Source: Clostridia bacterium (GTDB taxonomy: Bacteria; Bacillota; Clostridia; Peptostreptococcales; JAAYPU01). Taken from it: a stretch of 29,423 bases of DNA. The stretch is from NCBI GenBank assembly GCA_028279945.1, contig JANQMT010000149.1, forward strand, positions 1-29,423, read 5' to 3'. The number at the start of each line of letters is the position of its first letter. Position 1 is the first letter of the stretch. This document shows, in pieces, positions 1-22,883 of this stretch. The translations under genes were made by a program, and so were the position numbers. The notes below the pieces were generated by a model. It was not told where the DNA came from, ran no database searches, and saw nothing but the letters and a program-made list of their open reading frames with translations.

Positions 1-902
1 CACCGTTGATGTCGGCACAAATTGGTGTAGGCAATACGAAATTGGTCATGTATTCTAATTTAACTGGCAACATAATCAATGTAGTATTGAACTATGTGTT
101 GATATTTGGTAAATTTGGATTTCCTAGAATGGAGATGGCAGGCGCAGGTTTAGCTACGGTCATCGGTAATGTGGTCATATTTTTATTGTTGTTAAAATCA
201 GTTATTCGTGGCAAAAATGGCATCAATATTTTAAAGGGCAGTTGGAAATTTAAAAAAGGTGTCATGAAACCACTATTAAATATTGGCAGCAGTTCCTTGA
301 TGGAACACAGCTGGGAAAGGATTGGTCTGTTCATCTTTGCCAGACTCATTGCTGAACTTGGCACAGTTGCCATGGGGATACACCATTTTTGTATTCTTAT
401 TTGGGATCTGTACTATTACTTTGGCATGGGCATGGGCACAGCAAGTGCATCCTTCTCCGGTAGGAAGATAGGTGAAGGACGTAAAGATCTGGCCATTATT
501 TACACAAAGGTAGCCCAGCGTTCAGGATTGATTATTTCTATGATTGCCAGTGTCATATTTATATGGGTGCGTGAACCGGTTTTTGATTTTTTTGTCTCTG
601 ATTCTGAAGGCATTCGACTGGGAGTTGCAGTTATGGGTATTGTGGCGATGTTAATTATTCCACAAACCTATGCTCAAGTTTCTTCTGGGACTTTACGTGG
701 TGCAGGTGACAATCGATTTATAGCGGTTTATTTTTTGGCTGTCAGTGCTATACTACGGCCTTTGAGTGCGTATGTTTTTGCTCTTAGCTTAGGTTTAGGT
801 TTACCTGGAATGTGGTTGGCATTATTGCTAGATGAGAGTTTGAAAATGGTTCTTACTCGATATCGTATTAAAAAAGGAATTTGGTTGAAGATTGAATTTT
901 GA
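1..902 (+). CDS. MATE-family multidrug/oligosaccharidyl-lipid efflux transporter, C-terminal ~2/3 (5' end lies outside window)
   Basis: Open frame from window edge. Polytopic hydrophobic protein with MATE-like motif LRGAGDNRF and repeated TM helices. The ORF-track ATG at 6 is probably internal. Confidence 0.7.
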   Translation, partial: PLMSAQIGVGNTKLVMYSNLTGNIINVVLNYVLIFGKFGFPRMEMAGAGLATVIGNVVIFLLLLKSVIRGKNGINILKGSWKFKKGVMKPLLNIGSSSLMEHSWERIGLFIFARLIAELGTVAMGIHHFCILIWDLYYYFGMGMGTASASFSGRKIGEGRKDLAIIYTKVAQRSGLIISMIASVIFIWVREPVFDFFVSDSEGIRLGVAVMGIVAMLIIPQTYAQVSSGTLRGAGDNRFIAVYFLAVSAILRPLSAYVFALSLGLGLPGMWLALLLDESLKMVLTRYRIKKGIWLKIEF

Positions 903-1035
903 TATAAAATGTTTGTAGTTCAGCATTCTCAGAGATATTTGGAAAAGATGATATTTCTTTGTCCATTGATTGTATAAATACTGTGTAATTCTGGTGACGA
1001 AATGTGGTTAGGGATTGTTGCTCGAGAGTAATTTT

Positions 1036-1073
1036 GGGGTGAAAAATTGGCTGAAAAACGCCATTTTTGCCCC
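1036..1073 (+). other. Long imperfect hairpin inside 5' block (GGGGTGAAAAATTGGC / GCCATTTTTGCCCC)
   Basis: Near-perfect inverted repeat with one bulge. The equivalent position in copy 2 (4196-4227) also folds (GGGGCAAGAAATT / AATTTTGCCTC) using a different sequence. Confidence 0.4.
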
Positions 1074-1156
1074 TTTATAATGGGTAAAGATATAGATGAC
1101 ATAGAGGATTTGGGGTATGAAAAGCAAATATTAATTGATATGTGAATGTAAAAGAC

Positions 1157-1203
1157 GAAGCTTTGGTCAGTTAATGATTTAAAAGCTTCTTCTATTTTGT
1201 TGG
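1157..1203 (+). terminator. Terminator-like hairpin GAAGCTTT-N16-AAAGCTTC followed by TCTATTTTGTTGG
   Basis: 8-bp perfect stem plus T-rich tail. Copy 2 has a hairpin at the same aligned position with a different, compensating stem (4360-4410). Confidence 0.45.
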
Positions 1204-1268
1204 AAAAATTCAAATGACATCTTGTGTTTATAATTAATTAAAAATTTGATATAATTTGTAAAAATATA

Positions 1269-1297
1269 TTGGATATAATTGGAAATGGGTGTAGAAT
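1269..1297 (+). promoter_or_regulatory. Sigma-A-like promoter: -35 TTGGAT, 17-bp spacer, -10 TAGAAT
   Basis: Both hexamers and the spacing are conserved in copy 2 (4496-4524). The promoter sits about 95 nt upstream of the 1389 start codon. Confidence 0.5.
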
Positions 1298-1388
1298 GAA
1301 TTCAGGTGTAAGTTTGCAGATATTTAATTACGATTGAGTTATTAGTGTTTTGTAAATAATAGCGTTATGCAATATTGGAGGGGATTAT

Positions 1389-2138
1389 ATGAATGGGCAA
1401 CTTCATCATTTGATACAAGTTGTGGATACTTGTAGCAAATACTTGAATGGTAAAAGTCAAAATGTGTTAGATGATAAACATTATAGCTCGTTAGTATTTA
1501 TAAAGCAGAACGAAAATACAATTATCAAAAAATTAATGGGTAAGCCTACATCTGAACTAGTGATAGCTACTAAAATTTCAGAGTTTCAGAAATACTTGGA
1601 GAATAACAAATGTAAAAAAGTGTATATTCATTTATCAGTAGAAGAGGATGATATAAATTTGTCTGCATATGCAAATGGGATTGCTGGGCAACTTATGGTA
1701 TGTGAATTCAATAATTATATTGAAATATGGAGGAATAGTTTTAATTATAATGGTGAAAAGTGGGATGTAGTTTATTATATGATAGATCGTAGCAACAAAC
1801 AGTATAAACCTGTTAAAAGAAATCTGAAGGAAGAGTATATTAAATTGATTAATTGCTATGAATCATTAGAAGAATTTGCTTTGTTAATTGAACAAAAATA
1901 TTGGGCTGAGTTTTTTGAAAAGGGTAAAAGAAACTTATTGGATATTCCTGATTTAGAACGTAATGAAATAAACAAAGTAATACAGAATATCAAGTGGCCT
2001 TTTGGGGGTATGGGTTCATGGAATGATTCACCGCCATATTCTGCTCATGAAAAAGGATTGGATGAAGATTTTAAAGTGAAAAGTAATATGTTATACAATC
2101 AATTGCATGTTGTAATTGAAGCTATACTTAATATGTAA
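1389..2138 (+). CDS. Hypothetical cytoplasmic protein (249 aa), cargo of cassette 1
   Basis: Strong RBS TTGGAGGGG 7 nt before the ATG. Clean ORF with no recognisable family motif. C-terminal WPFGGMGSWNDSPPYS stretch noted. Confidence 0.6.
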   Translation: MNGQLHHLIQVVDTCSKYLNGKSQNVLDDKHYSSLVFIKQNENTIIKKLMGKPTSELVIATKISEFQKYLENNKCKKVYIHLSVEEDDINLSAYANGIAGQLMVCEFNNYIEIWRNSFNYNGEKWDVVYYMIDRSNKQYKPVKRNLKEEYIKLINCYESLEEFALLIEQKYWAEFFEKGKRNLLDIPDLERNEINKVIQNIKWPFGGMGSWNDSPPYSAHEKGLDEDFKVKSNMLYNQLHVVIEAILNM

Positions 2139-2143
2139 GCACC

Positions 2144-2218
2144 TGAATAACGCTGCATTTACCCACATACCTCTAGGTTGAGGATTAGCCCTTGTAGGTA
2201 TTACAGGTGGGGTTTTGA
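2144..2218 (+). repeat. Conserved structured 3' element, copy 1 (paralog of 5274-5342)
   Basis: About 70% identical to 5274-5342. Outer stem CCCAC(2162-2166)/GTGGG(2207-2211) co-varies with CCAAC/GTTGG in copy 2. Inner stem CCTC/GAGG corresponds to CACAC/GTGAG in copy 2. It ends in GGGGTTTTG. Confidence 0.55.
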
Positions 2219-2326
2219 TAATTGTCGGAAACGTTATAATGGAGATATCTGATCTGGGTTGGAAAGCTAAACTTGATAGTAAGAAATAAAAATAATAAAT
2301 AATTAAGGACTGGATAGAGGTAGAAT

Positions 2327-2872
2327 ATGAAGAAGAAAATTATAGTATTAGTTATTGTCTTGTTATTTTTGAGTTGTTCATGTAGTAAGCAAACTGAAGA
2401 CATTGAAGGTAATGGAAACGAACAAATCGACTTAGAATCAGTAGAAGATGGTAAAGAAAATAATCAAGATAATGAAGTAATAATATTTGATGAAGACGGT
2501 CAATATTTAGAATTATATTTAGAGGAAAAACCATGGATGTATATCGCAAATATCAAGGATATTCCAGAATTGTCTGAAGCGAATGAGGGTGGAGCAGATT
2601 ATGATCATGAAAATGGAGTGATAAGTTTTTCAATTACAAAAGCTACTGGAACGATGACTGGAGCAGTAGATGGCCCATGGGTTTTTGCAGAAGTTGATAT
2701 TATAAAAAAACAGGTATTAAAAAAGAAATTTGGTCCTGCTCCAGAATTTGATAATCCTAAATACAAAGAGTTTAGTGGAGAAATATTAGAAATTTCGGAT
2801 ACACGATTAACAGAGATTGCAAATTATTTTTATAGGATATTTAATGATAAAAGTTTTGAATGTATTAAATAA
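2327..2872 (+). CDS. Putative secreted/lipoprotein (181 aa), acidic
   Basis: RBS GGATAGAGGTAG. N-terminus MKKKIIVLVIVLLFLSCSCS is signal-peptide-like with Cys close to the cleavage region. Confidence 0.55.
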   Translation: MKKKIIVLVIVLLFLSCSCSKQTEDIEGNGNEQIDLESVEDGKENNQDNEVIIFDEDGQYLELYLEEKPWMYIANIKDIPELSEANEGGADYDHENGVISFSITKATGTMTGAVDGPWVFAEVDIIKKQVLKKKFGPAPEFDNPKYKEFSGEILEISDTRLTEIANYFYRIFNDKSFECIK

Positions 2873-3088
2873 TGGTATGAGCAAGTTGTTGAACATAGAT
2901 ATAATATGTTTTTTAAAGAACTTAATTTGTCTAAGAGCATAGTGATTGATGATTTAGAGAAAGCTGATCATGCTTTTAACTAAGGAATTGTCAGACGAAA
3001 GTGATAAATCTATAGTATCTAAAATTATCAGCAGAGAGAATATAGGAGTCGAGCTTCAAGAAGTAAAAAAGCATATAATGAAGTCAAT

Positions 3089-3560
3089 TTGTCAAGCCTG
3101 ACCCCTTGCTACTTAATAAAAATGCTTAATAAAAATGTTAGAATAAAAGTTAAGGAATCAAGAGATAATTATGTTGAGAAAAAATATGAATATAAAAACT
3201 TTGTTGTTGGAACAGCGATAACGTTAACTAGTTTTTATTTAGGATGCTGCATCAATTGCATATACTGTTGTATCGGGAGTACAAGTGATTCAAGAAAATG
3301 CAGAAATTGCAAAAGATGCAGAATATTCCTATTGGGGAGCTAAAGAAGGTTACGCATATGATACGACACTCTATAATGATGATGTATTGGTGTATAATAA
3401 TTCTGAAGGATATGATAAGTATGGGAATTGGACTTGGATAGAGTCACCACGTTCTGATGCGTATAGCGTTAGCAATACTAAAAAAATAAACAAAACAATT
3501 GAGCTCTATAATGCATGTATAGTAACTTATGGATATTGTGAATTATATTCTCCAGATTAA
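3089..3560 (+). pseudogene. Small secreted-type protein gene split across three frames (two +1 shifts at T-runs); possible pseudogene or sequencing-error-affected gene
   Basis: Frame 1 reads MLRKNMNIKTLLL then stops. Frame 2 reads KNFVVGTAITLTSFYLG. Frame 0 is open from 3243 and reads DAASIAYTVVSGVQVIQENAEIAKDAEYSYWGAK through to 3560. Joined, they form a plausible signal peptide plus mature protein. The Cys-rich tail of track ORF 3089-3343 is an out-of-frame artefact. Confidence 0.35.
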
Positions 3561-3585
3561 ATTTAAGTGCTTGAAGGTGGTTTAG

Positions 3586-4077
3586 TTGGATTTATTTATA
3601 TTGCAGTCTTTTTTAATTTTAGCAGTGTGTATTCCTTTAATTGATAATATACTTCACACAGGAAAAGTGAGTTATAAGTTTAGGAGAAATATACTTTTTG
3701 CTCGCCCAATACCTTGTGCAATGATTGGATTTGAGCTGTTTGTATTTGCTAATTTATTAATAGTTGATAAAAATATTTTATATAGTGTTGATTTTGAGTT
3801 AGTAAGTACGATGATTATAACCGTAATACTTATTGTATTTACGCTCATTGAATATGCAAAAATTTCAGAAGGGGTATATTCTAATGGATTAGTCCTCAGA
3901 GGACTTTTTTATAAGTGGAAATTAATCCACTCGTATGAAGCTATTGTTACAGACAGTGGAACGGTTATCTTAGATCTTTGTTTTATTACGAAAACAAAGA
4001 CCGTGTATAGAAGGTTTAATATTCATAAAACTGATTGGAACCATATGGAAAATATATTCGAAAAAAATATTAAGTAA
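3586..4077 (+). CDS. Small integral membrane protein (163 aa, TTG start)
   Basis: RBS GAAGGTGG 5 nt upstream of the TTG. Three to four hydrophobic helices. Its 3' third (3847-3960) is duplicated at 9760-9873. Confidence 0.5.
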   Translation: MDLFILQSFLILAVCIPLIDNILHTGKVSYKFRRNILFARPIPCAMIGFELFVFANLLIVDKNILYSVDFELVSTMIITVILIVFTLIEYAKISEGVYSNGLVLRGLFYKWKLIHSYEAIVTDSGTVILDLCFITKTKTVYRRFNIHKTDWNHMENIFEKNIK

Positions 4078-4087
4078 AGTAGTATGG

Positions 4088-4133
4088 AAACTCTTTGGAT
4101 ATAAATTATACCCAAAGAGTTTTTCTTATTTCT
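4088..4133 (+). terminator. Rho-independent terminator (AAACTCTTTGG-N13-CCAAAGAGTTT then TTTTCTTATTTCT)
   Basis: Perfect 11-bp stem immediately after the 4077 stop, followed by a U-rich tract. Confidence 0.7.
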
Positions 4134-4359
4134 GTAAGCGTAAATTACTAGATGAAAGCTCCATAGGTATAAAAGCCAGTGTTTGAGAGTCTTTTGGGGC
4201 AAGAAATTGGCGTGAAAATTTTGCCTCTTTAAAATGGGTAAAAAAATAGATGACATAAAGGGATTTGGGGATGACAGGGTGGAAATAGGAATTATTTACA
4301 AATGAAGAGAAAATATTCATTTGAGTTTGAATAAAAATTCATAGATGTTGGATAAGAAA

Positions 4360-4410
4360 AGGTGAAATTTTGGTCAAATAATGACTTAATGACTTCGCCT
4401 ATTTTGTTGA
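4360..4410 (+). terminator. Terminator-like hairpin AGGTGAA-N27-TTCGCCT followed by ATTTTGTTGA
   Basis: Positional homolog of 1157-1203. The stem is kept by compensating changes, including one G-U pair. Confidence 0.4.
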
Positions 4411-4495
4411 GAGAATTAAAATTAGAAAAGGAGAATGCATTAATCATTGTCTATTTATAGTATTTGAAAAAAATGAGATGATTTGTAAAAATGTA

Positions 4496-4524
4496 TTGGA
4501 TATAATTAACTGAGGGTGTAGAAT
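4496..4524 (+). promoter_or_regulatory. Sigma-A-like promoter: -35 TTGGAT, 17 bp, -10 TAGAAT (copy 2)
   Basis: Same hexamers and spacing as 1269-1297. Confidence 0.5.
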
Positions 4525-4650
4525 AAATTAAGTTATAAGTTTGCAGCTATTCAATGATGATGGAGTTATTAGTGTTTCGCAAATAACAATGTTATATGCC
4601 ATTTATATTTTTATAATTCTCAGATTTCATTAAAATAAGAGGGTGGATTT

Positions 4651-5217
4651 GTGAAAAAGTATTTTAATAAAAGTACCATACTTATTATTTTAACTATTAT
4701 ATTTTTAGGTTTTGTATTTTACTATAGTTTTTATAATATTGAAAATAATGTAGCTCAAATTGAGGAGAGTATTATAGAATTGATTAGTTTAGAAAAAGAA
4801 AGGGTTACTTTTCAAGCGAGTATAGAAATTGATAATAAAAAGTTTGTTTTATTTACTTTTGATGATAATGCTATGGGATATTCAAAGTTTCAAAAAGGAT
4901 TAAACAATAAATATAAAATAGAAAGTGTAGGGTATGAAATCGATAAAATTGAACACAGAGCAATAGATATAAAGGATAAAAAGTATTTTATTGTGCTAGG
5001 TAGAAATAATGATATGAGAATAAAAAGTATAAAAGCTATTATAGCTGGTAATGAATATATGCTTGATATACAACAAAATGAACATAGTATATCATATAAT
5101 AATGAATACTTTATTACATATTGTGAAGTGTTAAATGAAACTGAAACTGTGTTTCCACAAAAGTTTATATTATATGATATGAACAATAACGATATTACTG
5201 AGCAAATATATAGATAA
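4651..5217 (+). CDS. Hypothetical membrane-anchored protein (188 aa, GTG start), cargo of cassette 2
   Basis: RBS AGAGGGTGG. N-terminal TM/signal anchor ILIILTIIFLGFVFYY. No similarity to the cassette-1 cargo. Confidence 0.55.
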   Translation: MKKYFNKSTILIILTIIFLGFVFYYSFYNIENNVAQIEESIIELISLEKERVTFQASIEIDNKKFVLFTFDDNAMGYSKFQKGLNNKYKIESVGYEIDKIEHRAIDIKDKKYFIVLGRNNDMRIKSIKAIIAGNEYMLDIQQNEHSISYNNEYFITYCEVLNETETVFPQKFILYDMNNNDITEQIYR

Positions 5218-5273
5218 GATCATAATTATGTTTAAAAAATGGAGTAAGCTAATAGCATTATAAATTAAACGGC

Positions 5274-5342
5274 ATATAACACTGCATTTACCAACATGCA
5301 CACAGGGTAAAGGTGAGCTACAGTAGGATTTATCGGTTGGGT
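5274..5342 (+). repeat. Conserved structured 3' element, copy 2
   Basis: See 2144-2218. Confidence 0.55.
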
Positions 5343-5443
5343 AACTTAAGTGTTGTATTCTATTCATGGCGCGCGTCGTTAAATAAGATAACAGCGCAAG
5401 GATTCCGCAGTGTGAAGCGCTGGCTGGATAAAATCAGCATTAA

Positions 5444-7745
<2,302 letters not shown>

Positions 7746-7763
<18 letters not shown>

Positions 7764-7786
7764 AAGTTGCAAACTTTTTGTCTTTT
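7746..7786 (+). terminator. Rho-independent terminator (AAAGTTTGCAAC-N9-GTTGCAAACTTT then TTGTCTTTT)
   Basis: Perfect 12-bp stem spanning the stop codon of 6753-7763, followed by a T-tract. Confidence 0.65.
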
Positions 7787-7920
7787 AAATGGCAATTTAT
7801 TCCCATATACTAAAATTGTTCTTGATTTTTATAGCAGAGATTTCTGAATGGTCTCGCGGTGCCTTTGATAAAATGAGATAAGGTATACCAGAAAGATGGA
7901 ACCCGTAGAACTGAAGTGTT

Positions 7921-7948
7921 GGAGGTTCGATTCCTCTATCGCCAAATT
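7921..7948 (+). other. tRNA 3'-end-like fragment (T-arm GGAGG-TTCGATT-CCTCT plus acceptor-like ATCGCCA)
   Basis: Canonical T-stem-loop, but no foldable D arm, anticodon arm or matching 5' acceptor strand within 100 nt upstream. Confidence 0.35.
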
Positions 7949-8010
7949 GGTGATTAGCTCAATGGTAGAGCATTCAGCTGATAGTATGGGGTTCGATTCC
8001 CCTTCAAGTG
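7948..8010 (+). tRNA. Degenerate tRNA-like element or pseudo-tRNA (canonical D-arm TAGCTCAATGGTAGAGC and T-arm GGGG-TTCGATT-CCCC, but no anticodon loop: TTCAGCTGA leaves no loop)
   Basis: D-arm and T-arm are textbook, but the anticodon stem-loop and acceptor pairing cannot be formed by hand. Needs tRNAscan-SE or ARAGORN. Confidence 0.3.
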
Positions 8011-8198
8011 TGGTTACTTGTTGCTCGAAAGAGCTCCCGACTTTTAATCGGAAAAGAAGATAAGTAAGAACTATTTTAAGAACTCTCAGCAGCAGTTTAC
8101 TGCGCTAAGTTTTAAGCTTTGCAGTGTGTGGATACCGGTCAAAATACGTATATTCTTGCTATGTATTTTACTTCTTAATTATATGGTTATACCTAAAA

Positions 8199-8243
8199 CT
8201 AAGAAAAAAATCATAGCAACAATATATTAGTTTTTTTCTTAAG
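8199..8243. promoter_or_regulatory. Inverted repeat CTAAGAAAAAAA-N21-TTTTTTTCTTAAG upstream of the SPFH gene
   Basis: 11-12-bp inverted repeat, possibly a protein-binding site. Confidence 0.25.
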
Positions 8244-8332
8244 CAACATTCCGCCTAAATCTTAGGAGAGTTTTTAAAAAGTTCATAGGACAGTAATGGT
8301 AATATTTATATAGATTTGAAAGGGTGATTTTA

Positions 8333-9439
8333 ATGAAAATTATTGTGAAAAAAGATGAAAGAGGGCTTCTTTTTAAAGATGGCAATTATATGATGTGTTT
8401 AAAGGCCGGAAAACATAGGTTAAATCCTTTTGGAAAATATAGTATCCAACTGGTTGATGTGAATGAGTCTTTTGATACAATGGGTAAGAACATCAATATC
8501 TTTTTAGACGATGAAGAACTTTTAAAAGAGTTAACTGTAATAGATGTTAAGGATAATGAACTGGCACTCCACTTTGAGGATGGGAAATATATTGATGTTT
8601 TAAAATCAGTAAAAGGTGCTTACTGGAATGTACTCAAAAAACATGATTTTCTAGTTATTGATTTAAAGGATACGAAAGTGAAAGACGATATAGATGCTTC
8701 AATTTTAAGTAATCCAAAGGTGTGTGAATATTTAAACTGCTTCAATGTTGAAAGTCATGAAAAAGGTCTATTGTATTATGATAATGTGATACAAAAAGTA
8801 TTAGATCCTGGAAAATACTTTTTCTGGAAAGGACCTACCGATGTTACCGTTAAAACTGTAGATATGAGACAGCAACAAATTGGGATGGCTGGGCAGGAAC
8901 TGATGACGGAAGATAAAATTACGCTTCGATTGAATTTTGTATGTCATTATAAAGTTACAGATCCTTTGAAAGTAGTTGAAATTAATTCCTTTCATGAACA
9001 ATTGTACATAATTTTACAGTTAATCTTGAGAGAATACATTGGATGCGTTAAGCTAGATGTTCTTTTAGCAAAGAAACAAAATATAGGAAGTTATGTTCTT
9101 GAAAGATTAAAAGAAAAGAATAGTGAATTTGGAGTAGAGTTTATTTATGCGGGGTTAAAAGATATCATATTGCCAGGTGACATAAAAGAAATTTTAAACA
9201 CCGTATTAATAGCAGAAAAGAGAGCACAAGCTAACGTTATTACAAGAAGAGAAGAAGTTGCCTCAACAAGAAGTTTGTTAAACACGGCAAAGCTAATGGA
9301 TGAAAATCAAACCTTGTATAAATTAAAAGAGCTGGAGTTTCTAGAGAAAATATGTGAAAATGTAGGAAATATTTCTATAGCAGGAGGCGGCAACTTGTTG
9401 GAACAATTAAATGATTTGCTTTCAACTAGAAAAAGCTAA
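8333..9439 (+). CDS. SPFH/band-7 (stomatin/prohibitin/flotillin/HflKC) domain protein, cytoplasmic, with an internal ~150-aa insertion
   Basis: RBS AGGGTGA 5 nt before ATG 8333. N-terminus IVKKDERGLLFKDG...QLVDV. C-terminal core LRLNFVCHYKVTDPLKVV...AGLKDIILPGDIKEILNTVLIAEKRAQANVI matches SPFH. There is no N-terminal TM segment. Confidence 0.6.
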   Translation: MKIIVKKDERGLLFKDGNYMMCLKAGKHRLNPFGKYSIQLVDVNESFDTMGKNINIFLDDEELLKELTVIDVKDNELALHFEDGKYIDVLKSVKGAYWNVLKKHDFLVIDLKDTKVKDDIDASILSNPKVCEYLNCFNVESHEKGLLYYDNVIQKVLDPGKYFFWKGPTDVTVKTVDMRQQQIGMAGQELMTEDKITLRLNFVCHYKVTDPLKVVEINSFHEQLYIILQLILREYIGCVKLDVLLAKKQNIGSYVLERLKEKNSEFGVEFIYAGLKDIILPGDIKEILNTVLIAEKRAQANVITRREEVASTRSLLNTAKLMDENQTLYKLKELEFLEKICENVGNISIAGGGNLLEQLNDLLSTRKS

Positions 9440-9457
9440 AAAAAGGGTAATAATACA

Positions 9458-9703
9458 GTGATAGAACTAAGGGGCAGATACAACACAGTAAAAGTATTTA
9501 CCCATAATATAGAAGAAAAGGCTGCAGAGCAAATACATGAGCTTTGCAGTCAAAAAATAGAAGCTTTAGCTTATATCTGTCCAGTTTGTTTTTGTGAAAT
9601 AGACCTTTTTATAACATGCGAAGATGAACCGAGTGATCAAAATCATGGTCTAACTTTATTGGAGGCAAAAAATAACTATATTAGATTAGGGCGCATGCTG
9701 TGA
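9458..9703 (+). CDS. Small hypothetical protein (81 aa, GTG start) with CPVC...C...C cluster
   Basis: RBS AAGGGTAA. Sits 19 nt after the SPFH gene. Confidence 0.35.
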   Translation: MIELRGRYNTVKVFTHNIEEKAAEQIHELCSQKIEALAYICPVCFCEIDLFITCEDEPSDQNHGLTLLEAKNNYIRLGRML

Positions 9704-9759
9704 AGATATGGTAAGCCGTGTAAGGCAGCCTAAAGTTGATGAATTAAATGGCTTGGAAT

Positions 9760-9873
9760 ATTGAATATGCAAAAATTTCAGAAGGGGTATATTCTAATGG
9801 AGTAGTCCTCAGAGGATTTTTATATAAGTGGAAATTAATCTACTCGTATGAAGCTATTGTTACAGACAGTGGA
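9760..9873 (+). repeat. ~114-bp direct repeat, about 95% identical to 3847-3960 (internal fragment of membrane-protein gene 3586-4077)
   Basis: Read directly from sequence, roughly 6 mismatches. The embedded ORF 9748-9975 is a remnant with no TM part, so likely a gene fragment. Confidence 0.75.
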
Positions 9874-9897
9874 GGGGAATCATCTTTTAGCGTCTTC

Positions 9898-9930
9898 AAA
9901 TGCTGTACTCGAAAAGTGAGTACAGCATTT
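9898..9930. terminator. Bidirectional intrinsic terminator: perfect 13-bp inverted repeat AAATGCTGTACTC-gaaaagt-GAGTACAGCATTT
   Basis: A-tract upstream and T-tract downstream. It lies between the convergent 9748(+) remnant and the 9962-10708(-) gene. Confidence 0.65.
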
Positions 9931-9961
9931 GATTTAATGAAATATAGAGGGGAGAATTTGA

Positions 9962-10708
9962 TTAAAAGCCACTAATGTCTTGTGCAAGTCCGATGACCAT
10001 CATTTCTGATACACATCCGCCTTTTGTCAATGCGCATGCCTGATAAACCATATCTGCGAAGTGTTCAGGACGAACTGCCATTTCCTCATCCCATTCAAAC
10101 TTACTGATGCCTTCGGCAGATTGGAAGTTAGTATTTGAGCCACCTGGTACAAGTAAGGTGACACTTATGCCATGAGGTCTAAGCTCTGTATATAGGCATT
10201 TTGTGAAAGCATTTACTGCTGCCTTTGCAGCCGAGTATACCGACCAGCCGGGCCATGAACGGCGGTCGCAAACACTGGAGACGTTAAGTATTTTACCGTA
10301 GCCTTGTGCTTTAAACTGTGGAGCAAAGGTTCTACAGCTCATGATGGTGCTTGTTAAGTTTAAATCAATGATCTTTTTGTTCATTTCATCGTCCATTTCT
10401 TCAATGGGAGCAACTCTTACTGCTCCTCCAGCATAGTTGAGTAGAAAATCAACCTTTCCAAAGTTGTCTATGCATGCCTTTAGAGCTGCTTCAAAGGTTT
10501 CGGGCTTTGTAGCATCGCCTTTGAAAGCAATAACCTTTGAACCATGTGCTTCGCAGTTCTTGACTGTGTCTGCCAATGCCTCTTCATTAATATCAAACAG
10601 CACCAGATTACATTGATCCAGCTTTGCAAACAACTCAGCGGTTGCTTTTGAAAAGCCTGAAGCAGCTCCCGATAAAACAGCAACCTTCCCTTTAAAAGAT
10701 TCACCCAT
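9962..10708 (-). CDS. SDR-family NAD(P)-dependent oxidoreductase
   Basis: N-terminus KGKVAVLSGAASGFSK (Rossmann fold), YxxxK present. RBS AAGGAGGG. Confidence 0.85.
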   Translation of the reverse strand: MGESFKGKVAVLSGAASGFSKATAELFAKLDQCNLVLFDINEEALADTVKNCEAHGSKVIAFKGDATKPETFEAALKACIDNFGKVDFLLNYAGGAVRVAPIEEMDDEMNKKIIDLNLTSTIMSCRTFAPQFKAQGYGKILNVSSVCDRRSWPGWSVYSAAKAAVNAFTKCLYTELRPHGISVTLLVPGGSNTNFQSAEGISKFEWDEEMAVRPEHFADMVYQACALTKGGCVSEMMVIGLAQDISGF

Positions 10709-10837
10709 GAATAACCCTCCTTACCAATTATAGTAAATAATTGATCTTTTGAGATTATACTAACATATTCCATGACAAAGGTCAACAGCTCGTTTTTTAT
10801 CTTTGACATTTTTTATGAAAAAGTTCAATTGTTGAGA

Positions 10838-10866
10838 TTGACAAATGTCATAAATTAATTTAGAAT
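10838..10866 (+). promoter_or_regulatory. Promoter (-35 TTGACA, 17 bp, -10 TAGAAT) overlapped by palindrome TGACAAATGTCA (10839-10850)
   Basis: Perfect 12-bp palindrome, one of three copies in the window. A degenerate second half-site TTGACATTTT lies at about 10802. Confidence 0.55.
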
Positions 10867-10916
10867 TTAATTGAACAAATGTTTTGAAAAATGTTAATGA
10901 AGGCGAGGTCGGTGAT

Positions 10917-11699
10917 ATGTTAGTTAATTTGAATGGTAAGGTCTGTGTTGTTACAGGTGCAGCTAGAAGTATAGGTCTGGGTATTGCAGAGAAGTATTGC
11001 GAAGACGGAGCTAAGGTAGCAATGATCGACATTAATCCTGAGGTTGTATATGAGGCGGATAGAATTTCTAATGAATATAAGGCAGATGTAAAAGGCTATG
11101 TATTAAATATTACTAATAGAGAAGAGGTACTCAAATGTTTTGATAAGATTGTTGAAGAGCTTGGTCCTATATTTGCCTTGGTTAACAATGCAGGAATTGT
11201 AGATCAACGTTCCTTTGAGGAAATCACCGAAGATATGATTAACAAACAGATGGCAGTAAATGTGAATGGAACGCTTTTCTGTACCCAAGGTGCAGTAAAA
11301 AGTATGAAGGATCAGAACGAAGGCAGAATTATAAATTTTTCATCCAAATCAGGTAAAACAGGGTCAGCCCTAATGGCCCATTATTCTGCAGCAAAGGGAG
11401 CAATTATTGCCCTTACACATGCCCTTGCATTTGAATTGGCTTCCGATAATATTCAAGTGAATTGCATCTGCCCCGGTATAACTGATGCTACGGGTGTTTG
11501 GAATCAAGTAAGTTCAGGATATACAAAAAACCTAAACTTGTCTCGAGAAGAGGTCATAAAGCAATTTACAGCAAAAATTCCAATGAAGAGACTAACAAAT
11601 ATTGAAGATATTGTTGAGATGGTTTACTTCCTTACTCTAAAGGGAGATTATATGACCGGTCAAGCATATAACATTACAGGAGGAAGGGAGGTGCACTAA
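10917..11699 (+). CDS. SDR oxidoreductase, sorbitol-6-phosphate 2-dehydrogenase (SrlD)-like
   Basis: GKVCVVTGAARSIGLG, GRIINFSSKSGKTGS...YSAAK and C-terminal TGQAYNITGG resemble SrlD. Probable start is ATG 10917 rather than TTG 10884. Confidence 0.8.
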   Translation: MLVNLNGKVCVVTGAARSIGLGIAEKYCEDGAKVAMIDINPEVVYEADRISNEYKADVKGYVLNITNREEVLKCFDKIVEELGPIFALVNNAGIVDQRSFEEITEDMINKQMAVNVNGTLFCTQGAVKSMKDQNEGRIINFSSKSGKTGSALMAHYSAAKGAIIALTHALAFELASDNIQVNCICPGITDATGVWNQVSSGYTKNLNLSREEVIKQFTAKIPMKRLTNIEDIVEMVYFLTLKGDYMTGQAYNITGGREVH

Positions 11700-12746
11700 A
11701 TGAGTCATATGATAGGGAAGTGTGTGAAATATTATGCCCCAATGGATGTTCGAATTGAGCCGTTGATGGAAATACCTCAGATTTGTGATGGAGAAGTTTT
11801 GATAAAAATCGAAGCCTGTGCCATCTGTGGAACGGATATAAAATCCTTTGTCAATGGCAATCCCAGAATCATGCCTCCAAAGGTAATGGGGCATGAGCTT
11901 TGTGGAAAGATTGTGGCAATGGGCAGTGGCGTTGATAACTATAAAATAGGTCAGAGGGTAACGATGGCTACTACCATAGGCTGCGGCAAATGCGACTACT
12001 GCAAAAGTGGAAAGACAAATCTTTGTAGAAGTGCAGAGGCAATGGGCTTTCATTACCCCGGGGCGATGGCACCTTATGTGGTTATACCGGAAAAGGCGGT
12101 AAGACAAAAACATTTGGTGGATGTGGGAGATCTGGATGTCGTTATTGCAAGTCTAAGCGAGCCCCTATCCTGTGCTATGAATAATATAAGTCGTGTACCA
12201 GATGAAGCACTGGGAAGTGTACTTGTTATTGGCCTTGGGCCACTTGGAATGCTGCATGCTGTTTCCTTAAGGGAAAAAGGAGTCAAAAACATAGTGTGCG
12301 TAGCAAGACCGGGTAAAAGAGCGGATATGGCAAAGCAATTGGGCTTTGATATAGTGCTTTCGCCTCATGAGATAGATGAAAAATATAAGGAGCTTACAAA
12401 TGGCGAAGGATTTGATTTGATTATCATAACAGCTCCCAGCAACGAGATGCAAGGGAAGGTACCAATGTATGCTAAGAAAGGAGGGTACGTATCCTATTTT
12501 GCCAGTCTCCCTGTTGGAGATGAAATGCTGACAATGAACAGTAGGATTATCCATTATAATGAATTGGTGCTTTACGGTACTTCGGATTCTACAGTACAGC
12601 ACGTGAAAGCAGCAGTTCACCTTTTAAGAAAAAATCCGGAAGCCTTCAAGCCTTTGATTACACACGTTATGCCATTTGAAGATTTTCATAAAGCTATGGA
12701 TGAGATAAAGTTGAGAAATGCCGTTAAAATAGTACTTGTTCCATGA
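11700..12746 (+). CDS. Zn-dependent medium-chain alcohol/polyol(-phosphate) dehydrogenase
   Basis: CAICGTDIK, GHE, CGKCDYCKSG structural-zinc motif, GLGPLG NAD site. The start abuts the upstream stop. Confidence 0.85.
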   Translation: MSHMIGKCVKYYAPMDVRIEPLMEIPQICDGEVLIKIEACAICGTDIKSFVNGNPRIMPPKVMGHELCGKIVAMGSGVDNYKIGQRVTMATTIGCGKCDYCKSGKTNLCRSAEAMGFHYPGAMAPYVVIPEKAVRQKHLVDVGDLDVVIASLSEPLSCAMNNISRVPDEALGSVLVIGLGPLGMLHAVSLREKGVKNIVCVARPGKRADMAKQLGFDIVLSPHEIDEKYKELTNGEGFDLIIITAPSNEMQGKVPMYAKKGGYVSYFASLPVGDEMLTMNSRIIHYNELVLYGTSDSTVQHVKAAVHLLRKNPEAFKPLITHVMPFEDFHKAMDEIKLRNAVKIVLVP

Positions 12747-14019: not shown

Positions 14020-14316
14020 ATGTATGCAGCAAAAATTATAGGTACAGTAGTATGTACCCGAAAGGATGAAAAATTAAGTGGCAGGACGTTACAGGTGGTA
14101 CAGCCCGTTAGTCTCTTGACACTGGAATATGAAGGTAAACCTTCTGTAGCCATTGATTCCGTCGGGGCAGGAATGAATGAAATCGTTCTGGTTGTAGGAG
14201 GAAGTTCTGCAAGGCAGACAACAGTTACATCCAATACACCTGTGGATGCCACAATCATGGCCATTGTAGACCTGATTGATATAGATGGCCAAAAGGTATT
14301 CGATAAAGGTCAATAA
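14020..14316 (+). CDS. BMC vertex (pentamer, BMC-P) protein, EutN/PduN/CcmL family, copy 1
   Basis: MYAAKIIGTVVCTRKDEKL start is typical of EutN/CcmL. RBS GGAGGTAAGGGG. Confidence 0.85.
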   Translation: MYAAKIIGTVVCTRKDEKLSGRTLQVVQPVSLLTLEYEGKPSVAIDSVGAGMNEIVLVVGGSSARQTTVTSNTPVDATIMAIVDLIDIDGQKVFDKGQ

Positions 14317-14333
14317 TCTAAATTGTAGGGGGA

Positions 14334-14609
14334 ATGTCCATGTTTCTAGCTAAAATTATTGGAACAGTTGTTGCAACCCAAAAGGATGAATCATTGAGAA
14401 GTGTAAAGCTGCTGGTAATACAGCCCATTGATTCCTTTGGAAAAGAAGCAGGTTCTCCTGAGGTAGCTGTGGACACCATTGGCGCAGGCTATGGAGAAAT
14501 CGTATTTTGTGCAAAAAGCAAGGAAGGGGCTATGCCCTTACCTGACCCTAATGCGCCGGTGGATGCAGGAATTATTGGAATTGTTGATTGCATCTATAAT
14601 AATCGTTAA
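14334..14609 (+). CDS. BMC-P vertex protein, copy 2
   Basis: LAKIIGTVVATQKDESL, paralog of the previous gene. Confidence 0.85.
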   Translation: MSMFLAKIIGTVVATQKDESLRSVKLLVIQPIDSFGKEAGSPEVAVDTIGAGYGEIVFCAKSKEGAMPLPDPNAPVDAGIIGIVDCIYNNR

Positions 14610-14622
14610 AGGATGATTTGCC

Positions 14623-14919
14623 ATGATATTTGCTCGAGTAGTTGGAAATATGGTTGCAACCCAAAAAAATGAAAATCTGAGAGGTTCAAAATTAATGATT
14701 CTTCAACCTTTGGACACAAAAGGGAAAAGTGTCGGAAAACAGATCATAGCAGTGGACGCAGTAGGAGCGGGAATAGGAGATATAGTCATCGCCATTGCTG
14801 AAGGGGGTTCGGCAAGGCAGGTGTATAAGGCAAAACCCATGGCACCCATTGATACAATTATTGCGGGGATTGTTGACATCATTGAGACAGAAGATGGAAG
14901 CATAAGCTTATATGATTAA
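14623..14919 (+). CDS. BMC-P vertex protein, copy 3
   Basis: IFARVVGNMVATQKNENLRGSKL, a third tandem paralog. Confidence 0.85.
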   Translation: MIFARVVGNMVATQKNENLRGSKLMILQPLDTKGKSVGKQIIAVDAVGAGIGDIVIAIAEGGSARQVYKAKPMAPIDTIIAGIVDIIETEDGSISLYD

Positions 14920-14933
14920 AATGAGGTGAAAAA

Positions 14934-15794
14934 ATGGAAATGAATAAGTTGATTGAGGCCATTACCCAAGAGGTATTAAAAGAACTGGGTGAAGACGACC
15001 TTTTTAAAGTCGGCGGTATCTCCATCTCAAAGGAGGTGCTACCCAACGGTGTTGATATAAACAATCTGGCGAAGACAGTAGACCACACTGTTTTAAAGCC
15101 AGACACGACTAGGAACACTATAGAAAAATTTTGCAAAGAAGCAGCGGAATGGAGGTTTGCATCCGTCTGTGTGAATCCAACCCATGTAAAGCTGGCTGCA
15201 AGCCTTTTAAAGGAGACTGATGTAAAGGTATGCACCGTAATAGGTTTTCCTTTGGGAGCTAACACACCCTTTGTGAAAGCAATGGAAGCAAGGGATGCAA
15301 TAGCCAATGGTGCACAGGAGGTTGATATGGTGATTAACATAGGCGCCTTGAAGGATGGTGAATATGATCTTGTTTCAAAGGACATAAAGGCTGTCGTGGA
15401 TGCAGCGGCCGGTCAGGCGCTGGTAAAAGTGATTATCGAGACCTGCCTGTTGACAGAGCAAGAGAAGATAAAAGCCAGTTTATTGGCTAAAAATGCAGGA
15501 GCAGATTTTGTAAAGACTTCTACCGGAATGAGCACCGGAGGTGCTACGGTGGAAGATATCGCTCTTATGAGAAAAACAGTAGGCCCCCAAATGGGTGTTA
15601 AAGCTTCCACAGGAGTAAATAATCGTGAAATCGCACTGAACCTGATAAGAGCAGGAGCGACAAGGCTGGGTACTAGCAAGGGTATCATCATTCAAACCGG
15701 ACAAAGCCCTGAACAACCAAGCTGTGTAAACTGCGGCAACTGCAAATCAGGCTGTCCTACAGGAAATGCACATGTTGTGAAAGACAACTATTAA
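14934..15794 (+). CDS. deoC: Deoxyribose-phosphate aldolase (DERA) with N-terminal amphipathic helix and C-terminal CxxCxxCxxxCP tail
   Basis: [10 protein letters not shown] and MGVKASTG (the two catalytic Lys regions), TVIGFPLG. N-terminal [15 protein letters not shown]-terminal [12 protein letters not shown]. Confidence 0.85.
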
Positions 15795-15798
15795 AATA

Positions 15799-17292
15799 AT
15801 GTCAGCTGAAATAGGGGATGTGAATAATATGGTTGTCAATGAAATTGATCCGGTGAAAAGGTCCGTAAGAGAAGCCAATAAACTGATGGATGAAGCTTAT
15901 GAAGCTCAGAAACTGATAGCTGACTATGACCAGCAGAGAATCGATAGAATTGTTGCGGCAATGGTCCATGCAGGCTATGAGAATGTAAGGAAATTGGCTT
16001 ATATGGCCGTTGAGGAATCCAAAATAGGTGTTGCAGAAGACAAGGTGATTAAAAATGTGTTTGCAACAAAAAATATTTATGAATATATCAAGGATATGAA
16101 AACTGCTGAAATCATTAGTGAGGACAGAGAACAAGGGATAATAGAGATTGCAGCTCCTATGGGTGTCGTAGTAGGATTGATTCCCACTACTAATCCTACC
16201 TCAACCGTAATGTATAAGGCAATCATATCAATAAAATCAAGAAATGCCATCGTTTTATCCCCTCATCCAAGATCGGTGAGATGCTGTATGGAAGCTGCAA
16301 GGATTATGGAAGAGGCTGCTATTGCAGCCGGAGCGCCAAAGGGAATCATCAGATGCATGTCCATATGCTCTAAGGATGCAACCGACACACTGATGCACCA
16401 TCCAAAGGCAGCGGTCATATTGGCTACAGGCGGTAGTGCTATGGTTAAGGCAGCATACAGCTCAGGTACACCAGCATATGGAGTGGGACCGGGAAATGTT
16501 CCGGCTTTTATAGAACGGTCTGCAAATATATCTGATGCCGTCAGCAAAATATTTAAAAGCAAAACCTTCGATAATGGTACCATCTGTGCTTCGGAGCAGG
16601 CTATCGTAACAGAGGCTGTTATTGCTGAAAAAGTAAAGGCTGAGGTAATAAAAAGAGGCGGATATTTTGTTGTTGGTTCAGACATGGAAGCTCTGGACAA
16701 AACCATCATACTTCAAGATGGAGGGGTTAATCCGAAGGTAGTAGGTCAATCCCCCACAGCCATAGCTAAATTGGCAGGGATTGAAATACCTGAGGGAACA
16801 AAAATTATCTGTGTAGAGCTAAAGGGAGTAGGAAAGAAATACCCTCTTTCGGCAGAAAAGCTTTGTCCTGTATTGGCGTTCTATGTTATAGACGATTGGG
16901 AAGCTGGCTGTGAGCGGTGCATTGAACTGCTGAATTATGGTGGTCTAGGGCATACTATGGTGATACATTCACACAACGATGCAATCATAAGGGAGTTTGG
17001 ACTGAAGAAACCGGTTTTTAGAATCTTGGTAAATACGCCTTCCTCTCAAGGGGCTATAGGATATACCACCGGTCTCGCACCGGCTCTGACCCTAGGCTGC
17101 GGCACATGGGGAGGCAGTATCACCTCAGACAATGTTTCGCCCTTGCACTTGATAAACAGAAAGCGGATCGCATATCATCAACCTGCAAGTGAAGAGAAGG
17201 CAAAGTCTAAAGGTACTAGATATGTATATACATTGACTGAAATAAATAAGGCTATAGATAATTATAATAAAGGAGGCTATTGGAATGAGTGA
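15799..17292 (+). CDS. CoA-acylating aldehyde dehydrogenase (PduP/EutE family)
   Basis: [10 protein letters not shown] catalytic Cys, [23 protein letters not shown]. The alternative start ATG 15829 is possible. Confidence 0.85.
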
Positions 17293-17596
17293 AACAATAG
17301 GCATGATAGAAACAAAAGGCTTGGTAGGAGCAATAGAAGCTGCCGATGCAATGGTAAAAGCGGCAAATGTTCAATTGATGGGAAAGGAAATCGTGGGCGG
17401 TGGATTTGTAATGGTAATCGTAAAAGGAGATGTGGGAGCAGTTAAGGCTGCCACAGATGCAGGTGCTGAAGCAGCCGGAAGAGTAGGCGAACTGAAGTCC
17501 GTTCATGTGATACCACGCCCGCATAATGAGGTTGCAGTGATACTTCCCAAATACGAGACTGTTAAGGCCGGACCAAAAACAAAAGCAACGACTTAA
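17285..17596 (+). CDS. BMC hexamer shell protein (BMC-H, PduA/EutM family), copy 1
   Basis: [25 protein letters not shown]...GDVGAVKAA...HVIPRPH. Confidence 0.9.
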
Positions 17597-17637
17597 TATG
17601 GATAGCCACGTAGTTGAAAGATAGGAGGTAAAATATA

Positions 17638-17907
17638 ATGAGTGAAGCAATTGGAATGATTGAAACCAAAGGCTTGGTTGGAGCCATAGAGGCAGCAGAT
17701 ACTATGGTTAAGGCTGCCGGTGTCAAACTAATAGGTAAGGAATGTGTTGGAAGTGCTTTGGTAACGGTTATGGTAAGAGGAGACGTAGGAGCGGTTAAAG
17801 CTGCTACCGATGCAGGTGCAGCAGCGGTACAAAGCGTTGGAGAGTTGAAATCCGTTCATGTGATTCCAAGGCCTCATGCTGAGGTAGAATCCATATTACC
17901 AAAGTAG
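17638..17907 (+). CDS. BMC-H shell protein, copy 2
   Basis: Same signature. RBS GGAGG. Confidence 0.9.
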
Positions 17908-17944
17908 TATTATGTTTGAATAGATGAATTAGGAGGGTTTTAAT

Positions 17945-18217
17945 ATGGAAAATGCATTGGGAATGATAGAGACAATCGGTGAGGTAGGAGCCATAGAAGC
18001 AGCAGACGCTATGGTAAAGGCTGCTAATGTAAAGCTTATGGGCAAAGAGAAGATAGGCAGCGGCTATGTAACAGTAATGGTAAGAGGTGATGTGGGTGCC
18101 GTTAAGGCTGCAACAGAAGCCGGTGCGGCAGCTGCGCAAAGAGTTGGGGAGCTGAAATCCGTTCATGTGATTCCAAGACCTCATAAGGATGTAGAGAGCA
18201 TATTACCTGAAAAATAA
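17945..18217 (+). CDS. BMC-H shell protein, copy 3
   Basis: Same signature. RBS GGAGGG. Confidence 0.9.
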
Positions 18218-21920: not shown

Positions 21921-22883
21921 ATGGACGCAAAATTTGATATTTCACTTATGGTTAAGGTTGCACAAATGTACTATATGGATGAAATGAAGCAGGAAAAAAT
22001 TGCAAAGGAGCTTCAGATTTCCAGGTCGCTTATTTCAATGATTTTGACAGAGGCTAAGGACGTAGGTATCGTCCAAATTACAATCAAAAATCCTCAACTC
22101 AATAATGATGAGCTTTCCAGAGAGTTTGAAAGTAAGTTCAACCTCAAAAAATGCATTATTGTGCCCACGGCTGTTCAGGATCCTAATACACTGAGAAAGC
22201 TGGTGGCACAGAGAGCTGTAGATGTATTTAATCAAGAAATAAAAGAATCATCTAATGTTGGTATTTCATGGGGTAGAACCTGCTATGAGTTTATAAACCA
22301 ATTTGTAAGTGAATCAGTTTATAAGAATGTTTCTGTTGTACCATTAATAGGAGGAAGCAACCAGACGGCACATTATTTTCAATCCAATGAAATGGTACGG
22401 CGTTTTGCTGAGAAGCTTGGGGCAACCCCTCATTTTATCTATGCACCCAGCTTGAATTCATCCATTGAAGAAAAACTGCTTTTTAAAAAAAGCTCAAATA
22501 TGCAGGTGATACTGGAGAAGTGGGCTGATATGGATATCATTGTGGCGGCTGTTGGGACACTTCCTGATTTTAATTCCCATGAGCGTGAAACTTATATCGG
22601 AGAATCGGAGATATTTAGAATCCTTGAAAAAAGCGAAGCTGTGGGGGATATTTGTGCAAGGTATTTTGATAGGGATGGTCAATTTATCGAGGACAAATAC
22701 TTTGAAAGAATTCTTGGAATATCCCTTGATGAAATTAGAAGAGCGCATACAACCATTGGGTTTGCTATAGGATTAGAAAAGGTAAATGCCATACTTGGAG
22801 CATTGAAAGCCAATATTTTCAACATTTTTATTACTGATGAACAAACAGCAAAAAATGTATTGAAGGCTGAAATACAAAAATAG
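21921..22883 (+). CDS. SorC/DeoR-family sugar-phosphate-responsive transcriptional regulator (Bacillus DeoR-like)
   Basis: N-terminal HTH VKVAQMYYMDEMKQEKIAKELQISRSLISMIL, sugar-binding domain motifs GISWGRT, VVPLIGG, GDICARYFD. Clearly alignable to B. subtilis DeoR from memory. Confidence 0.85.
   Translation: MDAKFDISLMVKVAQMYYMDEMKQEKIAKELQISRSLISMILTEAKDVGIVQITIKNPQLNNDELSREFESKFNLKKCIIVPTAVQDPNTLRKLVAQRAVDVFNQEIKESSNVGISWGRTCYEFINQFVSESVYKNVSVVPLIGGSNQTAHYFQSNEMVRRFAEKLGATPHFIYAPSLNSSIEEKLLFKKSSNMQVILEKWADMDIIVAAVGTLPDFNSHERETYIGESEIFRILEKSEAVGDICARYFDRDGQFIEDKYFERILGISLDEIRRAHTTIGFAIGLEKVNAILGALKANIFNIFITDEQTAKNVLKAEIQK

Follow-up and report, generated by a model that had tools for sequence, protein, structure and literature searches.

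Probable eroded attC-type sites behind two small genes on a Clostridia contig

Organization of the locus

The DNA analysed here (the window) is a 29-kb contig of 29,423 nucleotides from a Clostridia MAG (GenBank assembly GCA_028279945.1, contig JANQMT010000149.1). Between a MatE gene and a pair of WYL/WCX regulator genes lie two modules built in the same order: a conserved non-coding platform, a small ORF unrelated to that of the other module and a conserved 3' element (Table 1). A preliminary description of the sequence had placed the two 3' elements directly behind the cargo genes, and this holds for both ORFs (1389–2138 and 4651–5217). The product of cargo ORF 2 has no homolog among 5.8 billion protein clusters. 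No tyrosine recombinase or integrase was found among the window ORFs with Pfam and NCBIfam; the window thus does not hold a complete integron, which takes attI and an intI gene encoding the IntI-specific domain beside the cassettes. A search for tRNA and tmRNA genes found none.

Table 1
Features of the two-module region and of the proposed sites
Feature	Positions	Strand	Remarks
MatE gene	6–902		Left flank of the two-module region
Platform, copy 1	1030–1363	+	Non-coding; about 77% identical to copy 2
Cassette 1, left boundary	1364–1370	+	R'-type box GTTATGC, 19 nt before ATG; platform/cassette junction
Cargo ORF 1	1389–2138	+	249 aa; weak DUF6966 similarity; family recurs as cassette cargo
Proposed full attC-type site, cassette 1	2145–2239	+	Extends 2144–2218; degenerate
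Copy 1 R''	2145–2151		GAATAAC
Copy 1 L''	2161–2166		ACCCAC
Copy 1 outer helix	2162–2166 / 2207–2211		CCCAC/GTGGG
Copy 1 L'	2207–2213		GTGGGGT
Copy 1 candidate R'	2233–2239		GTTATAA
Platform, copy 2	4190–4590	+	Non-coding; same layout, ends at GTTAT
Cassette 2, left boundary	4590–4605	+	TGTTATATGCCATTTA; holds R'-type box GTTATAT (4591–4597)
Cargo ORF 2	4651–5217	+	188 aa; orphan
Proposed full attC-type site, cassette 2	5274–5358	+	Extends 5274–5342
Copy 2 R''	5274–5280		ATATAAC; then 7-nt spacer
Copy 2 L''	5288–5295		TTACCAAC; then 40-nt loop
Copy 2 outer helix	5291–5295 / 5336–5340		CCAAC/GTTGG
Copy 2 L'	5336–5344		GTTGGGTAA; one extra G; then 7-nt spacer
Copy 2 candidate R'	5352–5358		GTTGTAT
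Copy 2 alternative R'	5378–5384		GTTAAAT
WYL/WCX regulator genes (pair)	from 5462		Right flank of the two-module region

A promoter scan places a promoter-like site, TGGATA-16-TAGAAT, in both platforms (1270–1297 and 4497–4524), and platform copy 1 carries a terminator-like hairpin at 1036–1073 (z −2.46). The similarity between the upstream platforms stops exactly at GTTAT. No homologs of the platform were detected in genome representatives, plasmids or the arrays fetched for comparison.

The strain contig L223, which is 98% identical, shares the unit around ORF 1, called cassette 1 below. It is without window segments 2572–2739 and 2866–3556, both of them away from the cassette boxes; the second deletion is flanked by a short ATTAAAT direct repeat. 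In the right flank, the WYL/WCX-type regulator at 5462–6766 appears to be split by a single in-frame TAA (6197–6199), with no other stop between the ORFs, and a second WCX-domain protein follows at 6753–7763.

Sequence and folding of the 3' elements

Both elements contain a 22-nt block, ATAACNCTGCATTTACCNACAT, at 2147–2168 and 5276–5297, in which 20 of the 22 bases are the same. The window has no other match to this block at three or fewer mismatches, and the expectation from 100 shuffles is zero. Similarity between the elements begins exactly at ATAAC, and over the coordinates first given 48 of 76 aligned columns are identical (63%), slightly below the approximately 70% first claimed. The shared block and this identity establish that the elements are real and related.

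The preliminary description held that the two copies keep an outer and an inner helix by compensatory change. The outer helices are present as written and differ by one compensatory pair, beyond which we see no further covariation. The inner helix is not conserved, since CCTC/GAGG of copy 1 aligns to CACA/AAAG of copy 2 and the columns are not homologous. When a third homolog, from the metagenome locus L213, is added, 63% of the cells in the two helices pair, against 58% in column shuffles, and the single change seen on both sides of a helix is equalled in 338 of 500 shuffles. A homolog with uncompensated breaks had been named as the observation that would count against the helices; the aligned columns of L213 no longer form the outer helix, and a shifted partner, GTTGGT, lies 13 nt upstream. 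Fold energies of both copies, computed as RNA and as DNA on either strand, are no better than those of shuffled sequences (z −0.96 to +1.47).

An RNA element in the 3' UTR could be a terminator, an mRNA-stabilizing hairpin or a small RNA, the last two being among the earlier proposals. Like intrinsic terminators, the elements lie on the coding strand behind the stop codons. In copy 1 a short, G-rich half-stem precedes TTTT, and the sequence GGGGTTTTG, described as terminator-like, does indeed follow this copy. The 5' leader and the 3' element could also pair in the mRNA. Against this, neither element has a G+C-rich stem running straight into a U-tract, and copy 2, as noted earlier, has no T-run at all. 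A terminator scan of 850–5500 returned only 3891–3905 and 5423–5438, neither of which is one of the elements. Rfam gave no match at the gathering score over the whole window and, for 900–5500 at E values up to 10, two weak unrelated matches only. The RNA folds score z −0.21 and +1.00 for the two copies. The two copies share no conserved open reading frame, and the frames of the platforms are also broken, so a coding explanation was set aside.

With the fold, terminator, Rfam, reading-frame and covariation tests all null, the RNA readings are left with position alone. Only one pair covaries, and the same boxes bound DNA cassettes in the arrays described below. We consider an RNA element very unlikely, and find nothing in favour of the RNA-stability or small-RNA roles in terms of Rfam matches, terminator-like sites or excess fold stability. 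Long-range mRNA pairing, or a ribozyme or intron with the ORF in its loop, would draw on the complementarity of leader and 3' element; these were dropped because those boxes bound DNA cassettes.

Boundaries of the two proposed cassettes

An attC site acts as an imperfect hairpin formed by a single strand of the DNA, with R'' (ending in AAC) paired to R' (starting with GTT) and L'' to L'. The R boxes follow the consensus RYYYAAC / GTTRRRY. The integron integrase cuts at the GTT triplet, and an ORF with its attC can then leave as a circle and re-insert. Conserved AAC and GTT triplets mark the ends of the site, which encloses a variable loop of 20–100 nt, and in an integrated cassette each attC is chimeric, its two parts having been joined at the GTT triplet (PMC4889954).

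The left edge of cassette 1 reads GTTATGC...GGAGG...ATG. Its 5' UTR, GTTATGCAATATTGGAGGGGA..ATG, can be aligned base for base with the starts of cassettes in two other loci, GTTAGATAACATTGGAGGAG..ATG in L220 and GTTATACAACATTGGAGGAG..ATG in L222, which makes this boundary orthologous to true cassette boundaries. We built a profile of cassette starts (the R' profile) from 30 outside examples and scored 58,810 window positions with it. The box at 1364 ranks 31st and that at 4591 ranks fourth; four of the five predicted GTT boxes of the two cassettes are within the top 31.

Complementarity between the left boundary and the right end of the same cassette is strong in cassette 2 and weak in cassette 1. 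In cassette 2, TGTTATATGCCATTTA is complementary to TAAACGGCATATAACA (5266–5281), located just before and within R''. This 13-nt inverted repeat (I5) around ORF 2 has a score of 13, the best among 32 ORFs, and none of 1000 shuffles does as well. Around ORF 1 the complementarity of AGCGTTAT (1361–1368) with ATAACGCT (2147–2154) covers 8 nt and by itself is not significant, 113 of 1000 shuffles being as good. Complementarity of the cassette start with R'' also occurs in cassettes of L213, L218, L222 and L224. GTT on the left of a gene, AAC on its right and a left end that complements the right box are together the hallmark of an integron cassette that has been integrated.

The last 70 or so nucleotides of the platforms resemble decayed attC arms (GTTTGCAG...TGTAAAT...GTTAT) and carry both L-box arms of sites L218_A and L222_5 (GTTTGCAG...TCGCAAAT, then GTTAT). 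The R'' of this attC-like end is degenerate and it does not fold. The platform may be a decayed ORF-less cassette supplying a promoter, or an attI-like landing site.

Structure of the proposed sites

Our reading is that the two 3' elements probably represent the R''–L''–loop–L' part of eroded integron-type attC sites of gene cassettes. The ends given previously (2144–2218 and 5274–5342) cut the feature short, the matching GTT box lying 15–20 nt beyond them. Sites of this kind would explain why the element stands right after unrelated small genes, why each cassette starts with GTTAT and why the start of a cassette is complementary to the R'' region of that cassette. The cassettes would span approximately 1364–2233 and 4591–5352, each behind a copy of the promoter-bearing platform. 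Judged from the observed sequence features, context and homology, the sites would fold into hairpins in vivo, and the cassettes may at some time have been recombined through them.

The R'' boxes start 7 nt (at 2145) and 57 nt (at 5274) past the ORF stops, which is where an attC is expected. The AAC and GTT triplets are present in both sites, at 2149–2151 and 2233–2235 in the first and at 5278–5280 and 5352–5354 (or 5378–5380) in the second. Against the R-box consensus, the two boxes of copy 1 agree at five of seven positions each; in copy 2 the R'' and the candidate R' agree at six of seven and the alternative R' at all seven. The choice of R' in copy 2 is ambiguous, as the box at 5378 ranks 17th in the R' profile and that at 5352 ranks 11,101st of 58,810. 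The R' context of copy 1, GGAAACGTTATAATGG (2233), ranks 27th.

As DNA, copy 2 folds with an R stem of 10 bp and an L stem of 8 bp, the latter carrying a bulged G; the internal loop is 4 × 4 and the spacers are 6–7 nt. Its variable loop of 40 nt is within the 20–100 nt range (PMC4889954). The extra base of its L stem sits on the 3' arm. In a canonical attC it is on the 5' arm, which counts against copy 2. In copy 1 the fold pairs ATAACG with CGTTAT and ACCCAC with GTGGG, and the spacers of 9 and 19 nt depart from attC geometry, the 3' spacer of outside sites being 6–9 nt. Neither hairpin is clearly more stable than random: z is −0.75/−0.73 for copy 1 and +0.14/−0.42 for copy 2, compared with −6.6/−6.8 for the bona fide site L218_A. 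A relaxed attC grammar finds copy 2 as its sole plus-strand match, yet it has four matches in the window against 2.2 in shuffles. Shape alone therefore proves nothing, as this grammar is satisfied by chance about twice per window.

With a profile of 26 R'' arms, all from outside the window, copy 2 scores 19.7 bits and ranks first of 58,796 window positions; 30 shuffled windows reach a maximum of 18.6 (mean 12.9). Copy 1 scores −11.4 and ranks 2358th. In an alignment of 14 R'' arms that includes both window copies TAAC is invariant, with the consensus AAC.TC...TAACA.

We also constructed a covariance model (R2) from 12 attC sites outside the window. The model has power: it finds sites in L226, L224 and L228 on which it had not been trained at E values of 1e-8 to 1e-13, untrained sites reach 45–71 bits, and L213 scores 21.3 bits (E 0.007–0.016). 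In the window it gives less than 1 bit for copy 1 and a partial match of only 6.4 bits for copy 2, so that neither is recognized as an attC. A smaller arms-only model (R1) also misses the window copies; it is too weak for its own long-loop training sites. Taken together, the profile, fold, R2 and spacer results describe copy 2 as a plausible though weak attC and copy 1 as a decayed homolog, whose spacing would no longer be canonical and whose R'' arm would keep little of the consensus.

A second R''-like start, GATAACAGCGC, is found just past copy 2 and ranks fifth of 58,796 in the R''-arm profile. Behind it come a small AGCGC...GCGCT hairpin and the terminator-like stem at 5423–5438. The stretch 5386–5450 may be the remnant of another attC.

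Relatives of the element and of cargo 1

Exact-pattern scans found only the two copies in the window and one outside. The 3' pattern gave one true match in metagenomes, L213; three matches in genome representatives (Sphingomonas, Proteobacteria and Bacteroidota contigs) show no further similarity and were put down to chance. The same applies to about 100 matches for each of two 15-base patterns in viral contigs, none with extended similarity. The leader pattern had no match in 185,579 genome representatives, and a distant blastn search of a plasmid collection with the cassette and with L213 was also negative.

The L213 element is homologous to copy 2 over about 170 nt (66% identity, E 3e-14). 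Whether copies elsewhere also follow variable genes had been posed as a check, and this one follows an unrelated DpnII-like gene inside a metagenome cassette array. The DpnII-like cassette is bounded by GTTATATGACATT and AACATCATATAAC, and a repeated G+C-rich unit ending in ACGTTATA occurs on both sides of it. An element that travels with different genes argues against a gene-specific RNA role. We name the subfamily by ATAACNCTGCATTTACC and write its L-box pairing as ACCNAC/GTNGGT.

Another origin deserves consideration here. Platform, gene and 3' flank might have been duplicated as a segment and one gene then replaced, leaving an element that is now functionless. The identities of the platforms (about 77%) and of the 3' elements (63%) would fit, as would the weak hairpins, the degenerate copy 1 and the missing integrase. 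Such a duplication leaves unexplained the same element behind an unrelated gene in another community (L213), the boundaries at GTT/AAC boxes common to true arrays, and the cassette-specific inverted repeat around ORF 2. We regard it as unlikely; it is also compatible with elements that began as attC sites. IS200/IS605-type ends, MITEs and Xer/dif modules were also considered and set aside, for want of a transposase, of additional copies and of a dif-like core.

Homologs of the cargo 1 protein are 31–45% identical. Seven of their contexts were fetched, of which six proved to be cassettes next to attC sites and one, L217, a plain operon. The homologs adjoin attC sites in L218, L220, L221, L222, L224, L226 and L228. 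Upstream of the gene in L218, a 95-nt hairpin (1064–1158; z −6.6) combines a short TAAC/GTTA R stem and a bulged L stem with an unpaired spacer, and the same boxes are found in L220, L221 and L222. The L222 array also carries APH, GNAT and PIG-L cargo; an IS110-family transposase gene (L222, 4987–5994) adjoins its last attC.

Two of these loci are large arrays. In L226, which comes from a soda-lake metagenome, a repeat of about 75 nt with the consensus ATATAAC-AGCGA-GTTGACG...CGTCAAC-TCACAGGAC-GTTAGGT occurs 17 times, interspersed with YoeB, ParE and HicA toxin–antitoxin cassettes. L228, in a 5-Mb genome, has 26 attC sites in 20.8 kb that score 45–71 bits. Within the latter array (2240–9500 and 14150–14900) there are also about nine copies of a cassette of about 700 nt that has no called ORF; the copies are 86–100% identical and each is bounded by attC sites. 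This unit may be a repeated non-coding cassette. We found no homology between it and the platform of the window, and a relationship between the two was discarded.

The window shares its cargo protein family and its box logic with these arrays, which look to be of the sedentary chromosomal (Vibrio) type, and their R'' consensus, CATATAAC, is identical to that of copy 2. It differs from them in having two divergent sites and no array, where L226 and L228 have 17–26 near-identical sites of 75–80 nt with strong stems.

Comparison with known systems

The points of agreement with attC sites are several. Each element immediately follows, on the same strand, a small ORF that seems to have no promoter of its own; the AAC and GTT triplets are 86–95 nt apart and the cassettes begin at GTT; copy 2 has the R and L pairings, unpaired spacers and a variable loop of 40 nt; the cassette start complements its own R'', significantly so in cassette 2, and cargo homologs reside in large attC arrays. 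The differences are that the window sites are AT-rich with weak hairpins, that in copy 1 the 3' spacer runs to 19 nt and the R'' arm matches poorly, that R2 recognizes neither copy, and that each cassette is preceded by a promoter-bearing platform of 330–400 nt and not by another attC or a known attI. The suggestion that the elements are recombination sites with attC-like logic is backed by the cassette context and the homology of the boundaries, and by the R''-arm profile together with the inverted repeat at the flanks. They look like actual eroded attC sites rather than the mere analogues that had been proposed.

Clusters of attC sites without an integrase are termed CALIN (Cury et al. 2016, PMC4889954); IntegronFinder 2 defines them as two or more attC lying within 4 kb on the same strand in the absence of an integrase (PMC9024848). 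The proposed sites are 3.1 kb apart on the plus strand with no integrase, and membership hinges on accepting sites that R2 does not score. With no integrase on the contig and a decayed copy 1, this is likely a CALIN-like, partly fossilized small attC cluster; such a cluster would be mobilizable only in trans, if at all. At best, then, the locus is a small CALIN-like cluster, or else two solitary cassettes, possibly fossil.

Observations on L224, from Natranaerovirga pectinivora, a cultured member of the class Clostridia, bear on a further possibility. Here an attC site of 27.8 bits follows the cargo 1 homolog. At 14060–16230 there is a tyrosine recombinase whose best solved relative is IntI4 (E 1.7e-41) and which is without IntI4 residues at about 180–240; it is 110 nt from a 49.6-bit attC, in divergent orientation, and its gene overlaps an IS91 transposase gene. 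The same locus has a group II intron (10813–11460) starting with GTGCGCC right after the GTTA of the 27.8-bit attC, with its RT/maturase at 11441–12592, a placement that we take to be the one expected for attC-targeting group IIC introns.

The window sites could belong to a non-canonical integron-like system, with structured sites served by a recombinase other than classical IntI, for example an IntI-like enzyme without the IntI-specific insertion, and with the platform as attI-like landing site and promoter. The short IntI4-like recombinase of L224 beside a good attC would suit such a system, and both window cassettes stand behind the same platform ending in GTTAT. The R boxes moreover look extended (AAC.TC...TAAC / GTTA...GACATT), and complete integrons are almost absent from Firmicutes (PMC9024848). 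However, the L224 recombinase may belong to the overlapping IS91 element, no recombinase is present in the window, and L226 and L228, the large arrays, have the appearance of ordinary chromosomal integrons. No observation ties the platform to recombination, and its attC-like end does not fold. We hold this system to be improbable. A still bolder version, which we think quite improbable, gives the Clostridia an integron-like system of their own, with AT-rich, weakly folding sites, an IntI-like recombinase without the extra domain as in L224, and the platform ending in GTTAT as a portable landing and expression site. If true, it would help to explain why standard integron searches in Firmicutes come back nearly empty.

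We return to eroded attC sites as the preferred reading. Integrons are the main gene-capture platforms of Gram-negative bacteria. In Firmicutes their components are reported to be extremely rare, with one complete integron and a few CALIN known (PMC9024848). The window elements most likely belong to a known type, the attC, in a rare and partly eroded occurrence in Clostridia. Eroded cassettes in a Clostridia MAG add to the evidence that cassette traffic reaches Firmicutes, as do the cargo relatives found in large attC arrays, of which one comes from a cultured member of the Clostridia. Standard models may miss sites this divergent. In annotation terms, the two orphan small genes and their conserved flanks would be explained as mobile cassettes and not as a new RNA element.

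Other features of the window

A 114-nt repeat with 96% identity occurs at 3847–3960, in a DUF5673 gene (3586–4077), and at 9760–9873, in a short ORF at 9748–9975; it is a duplicated gene fragment within the same island. Four intergenic copies of a 28-nt motif with TTGACAAATGTCAT are at 10838, 21774, 23026 and 23063, near a SorC-type sugar-binding regulator (21921–22883) and an ABC sugar transporter, and the motif is probably an operator. Finally, three paralogous ORFs of about 90 aa (17284–18213), 71–74% identical in DNA, share an operon with genes for a DeoC-type aldolase, an aldehyde dehydrogenase and a PduL-type phosphotransacylase, and the operon looks like a microcompartment locus.
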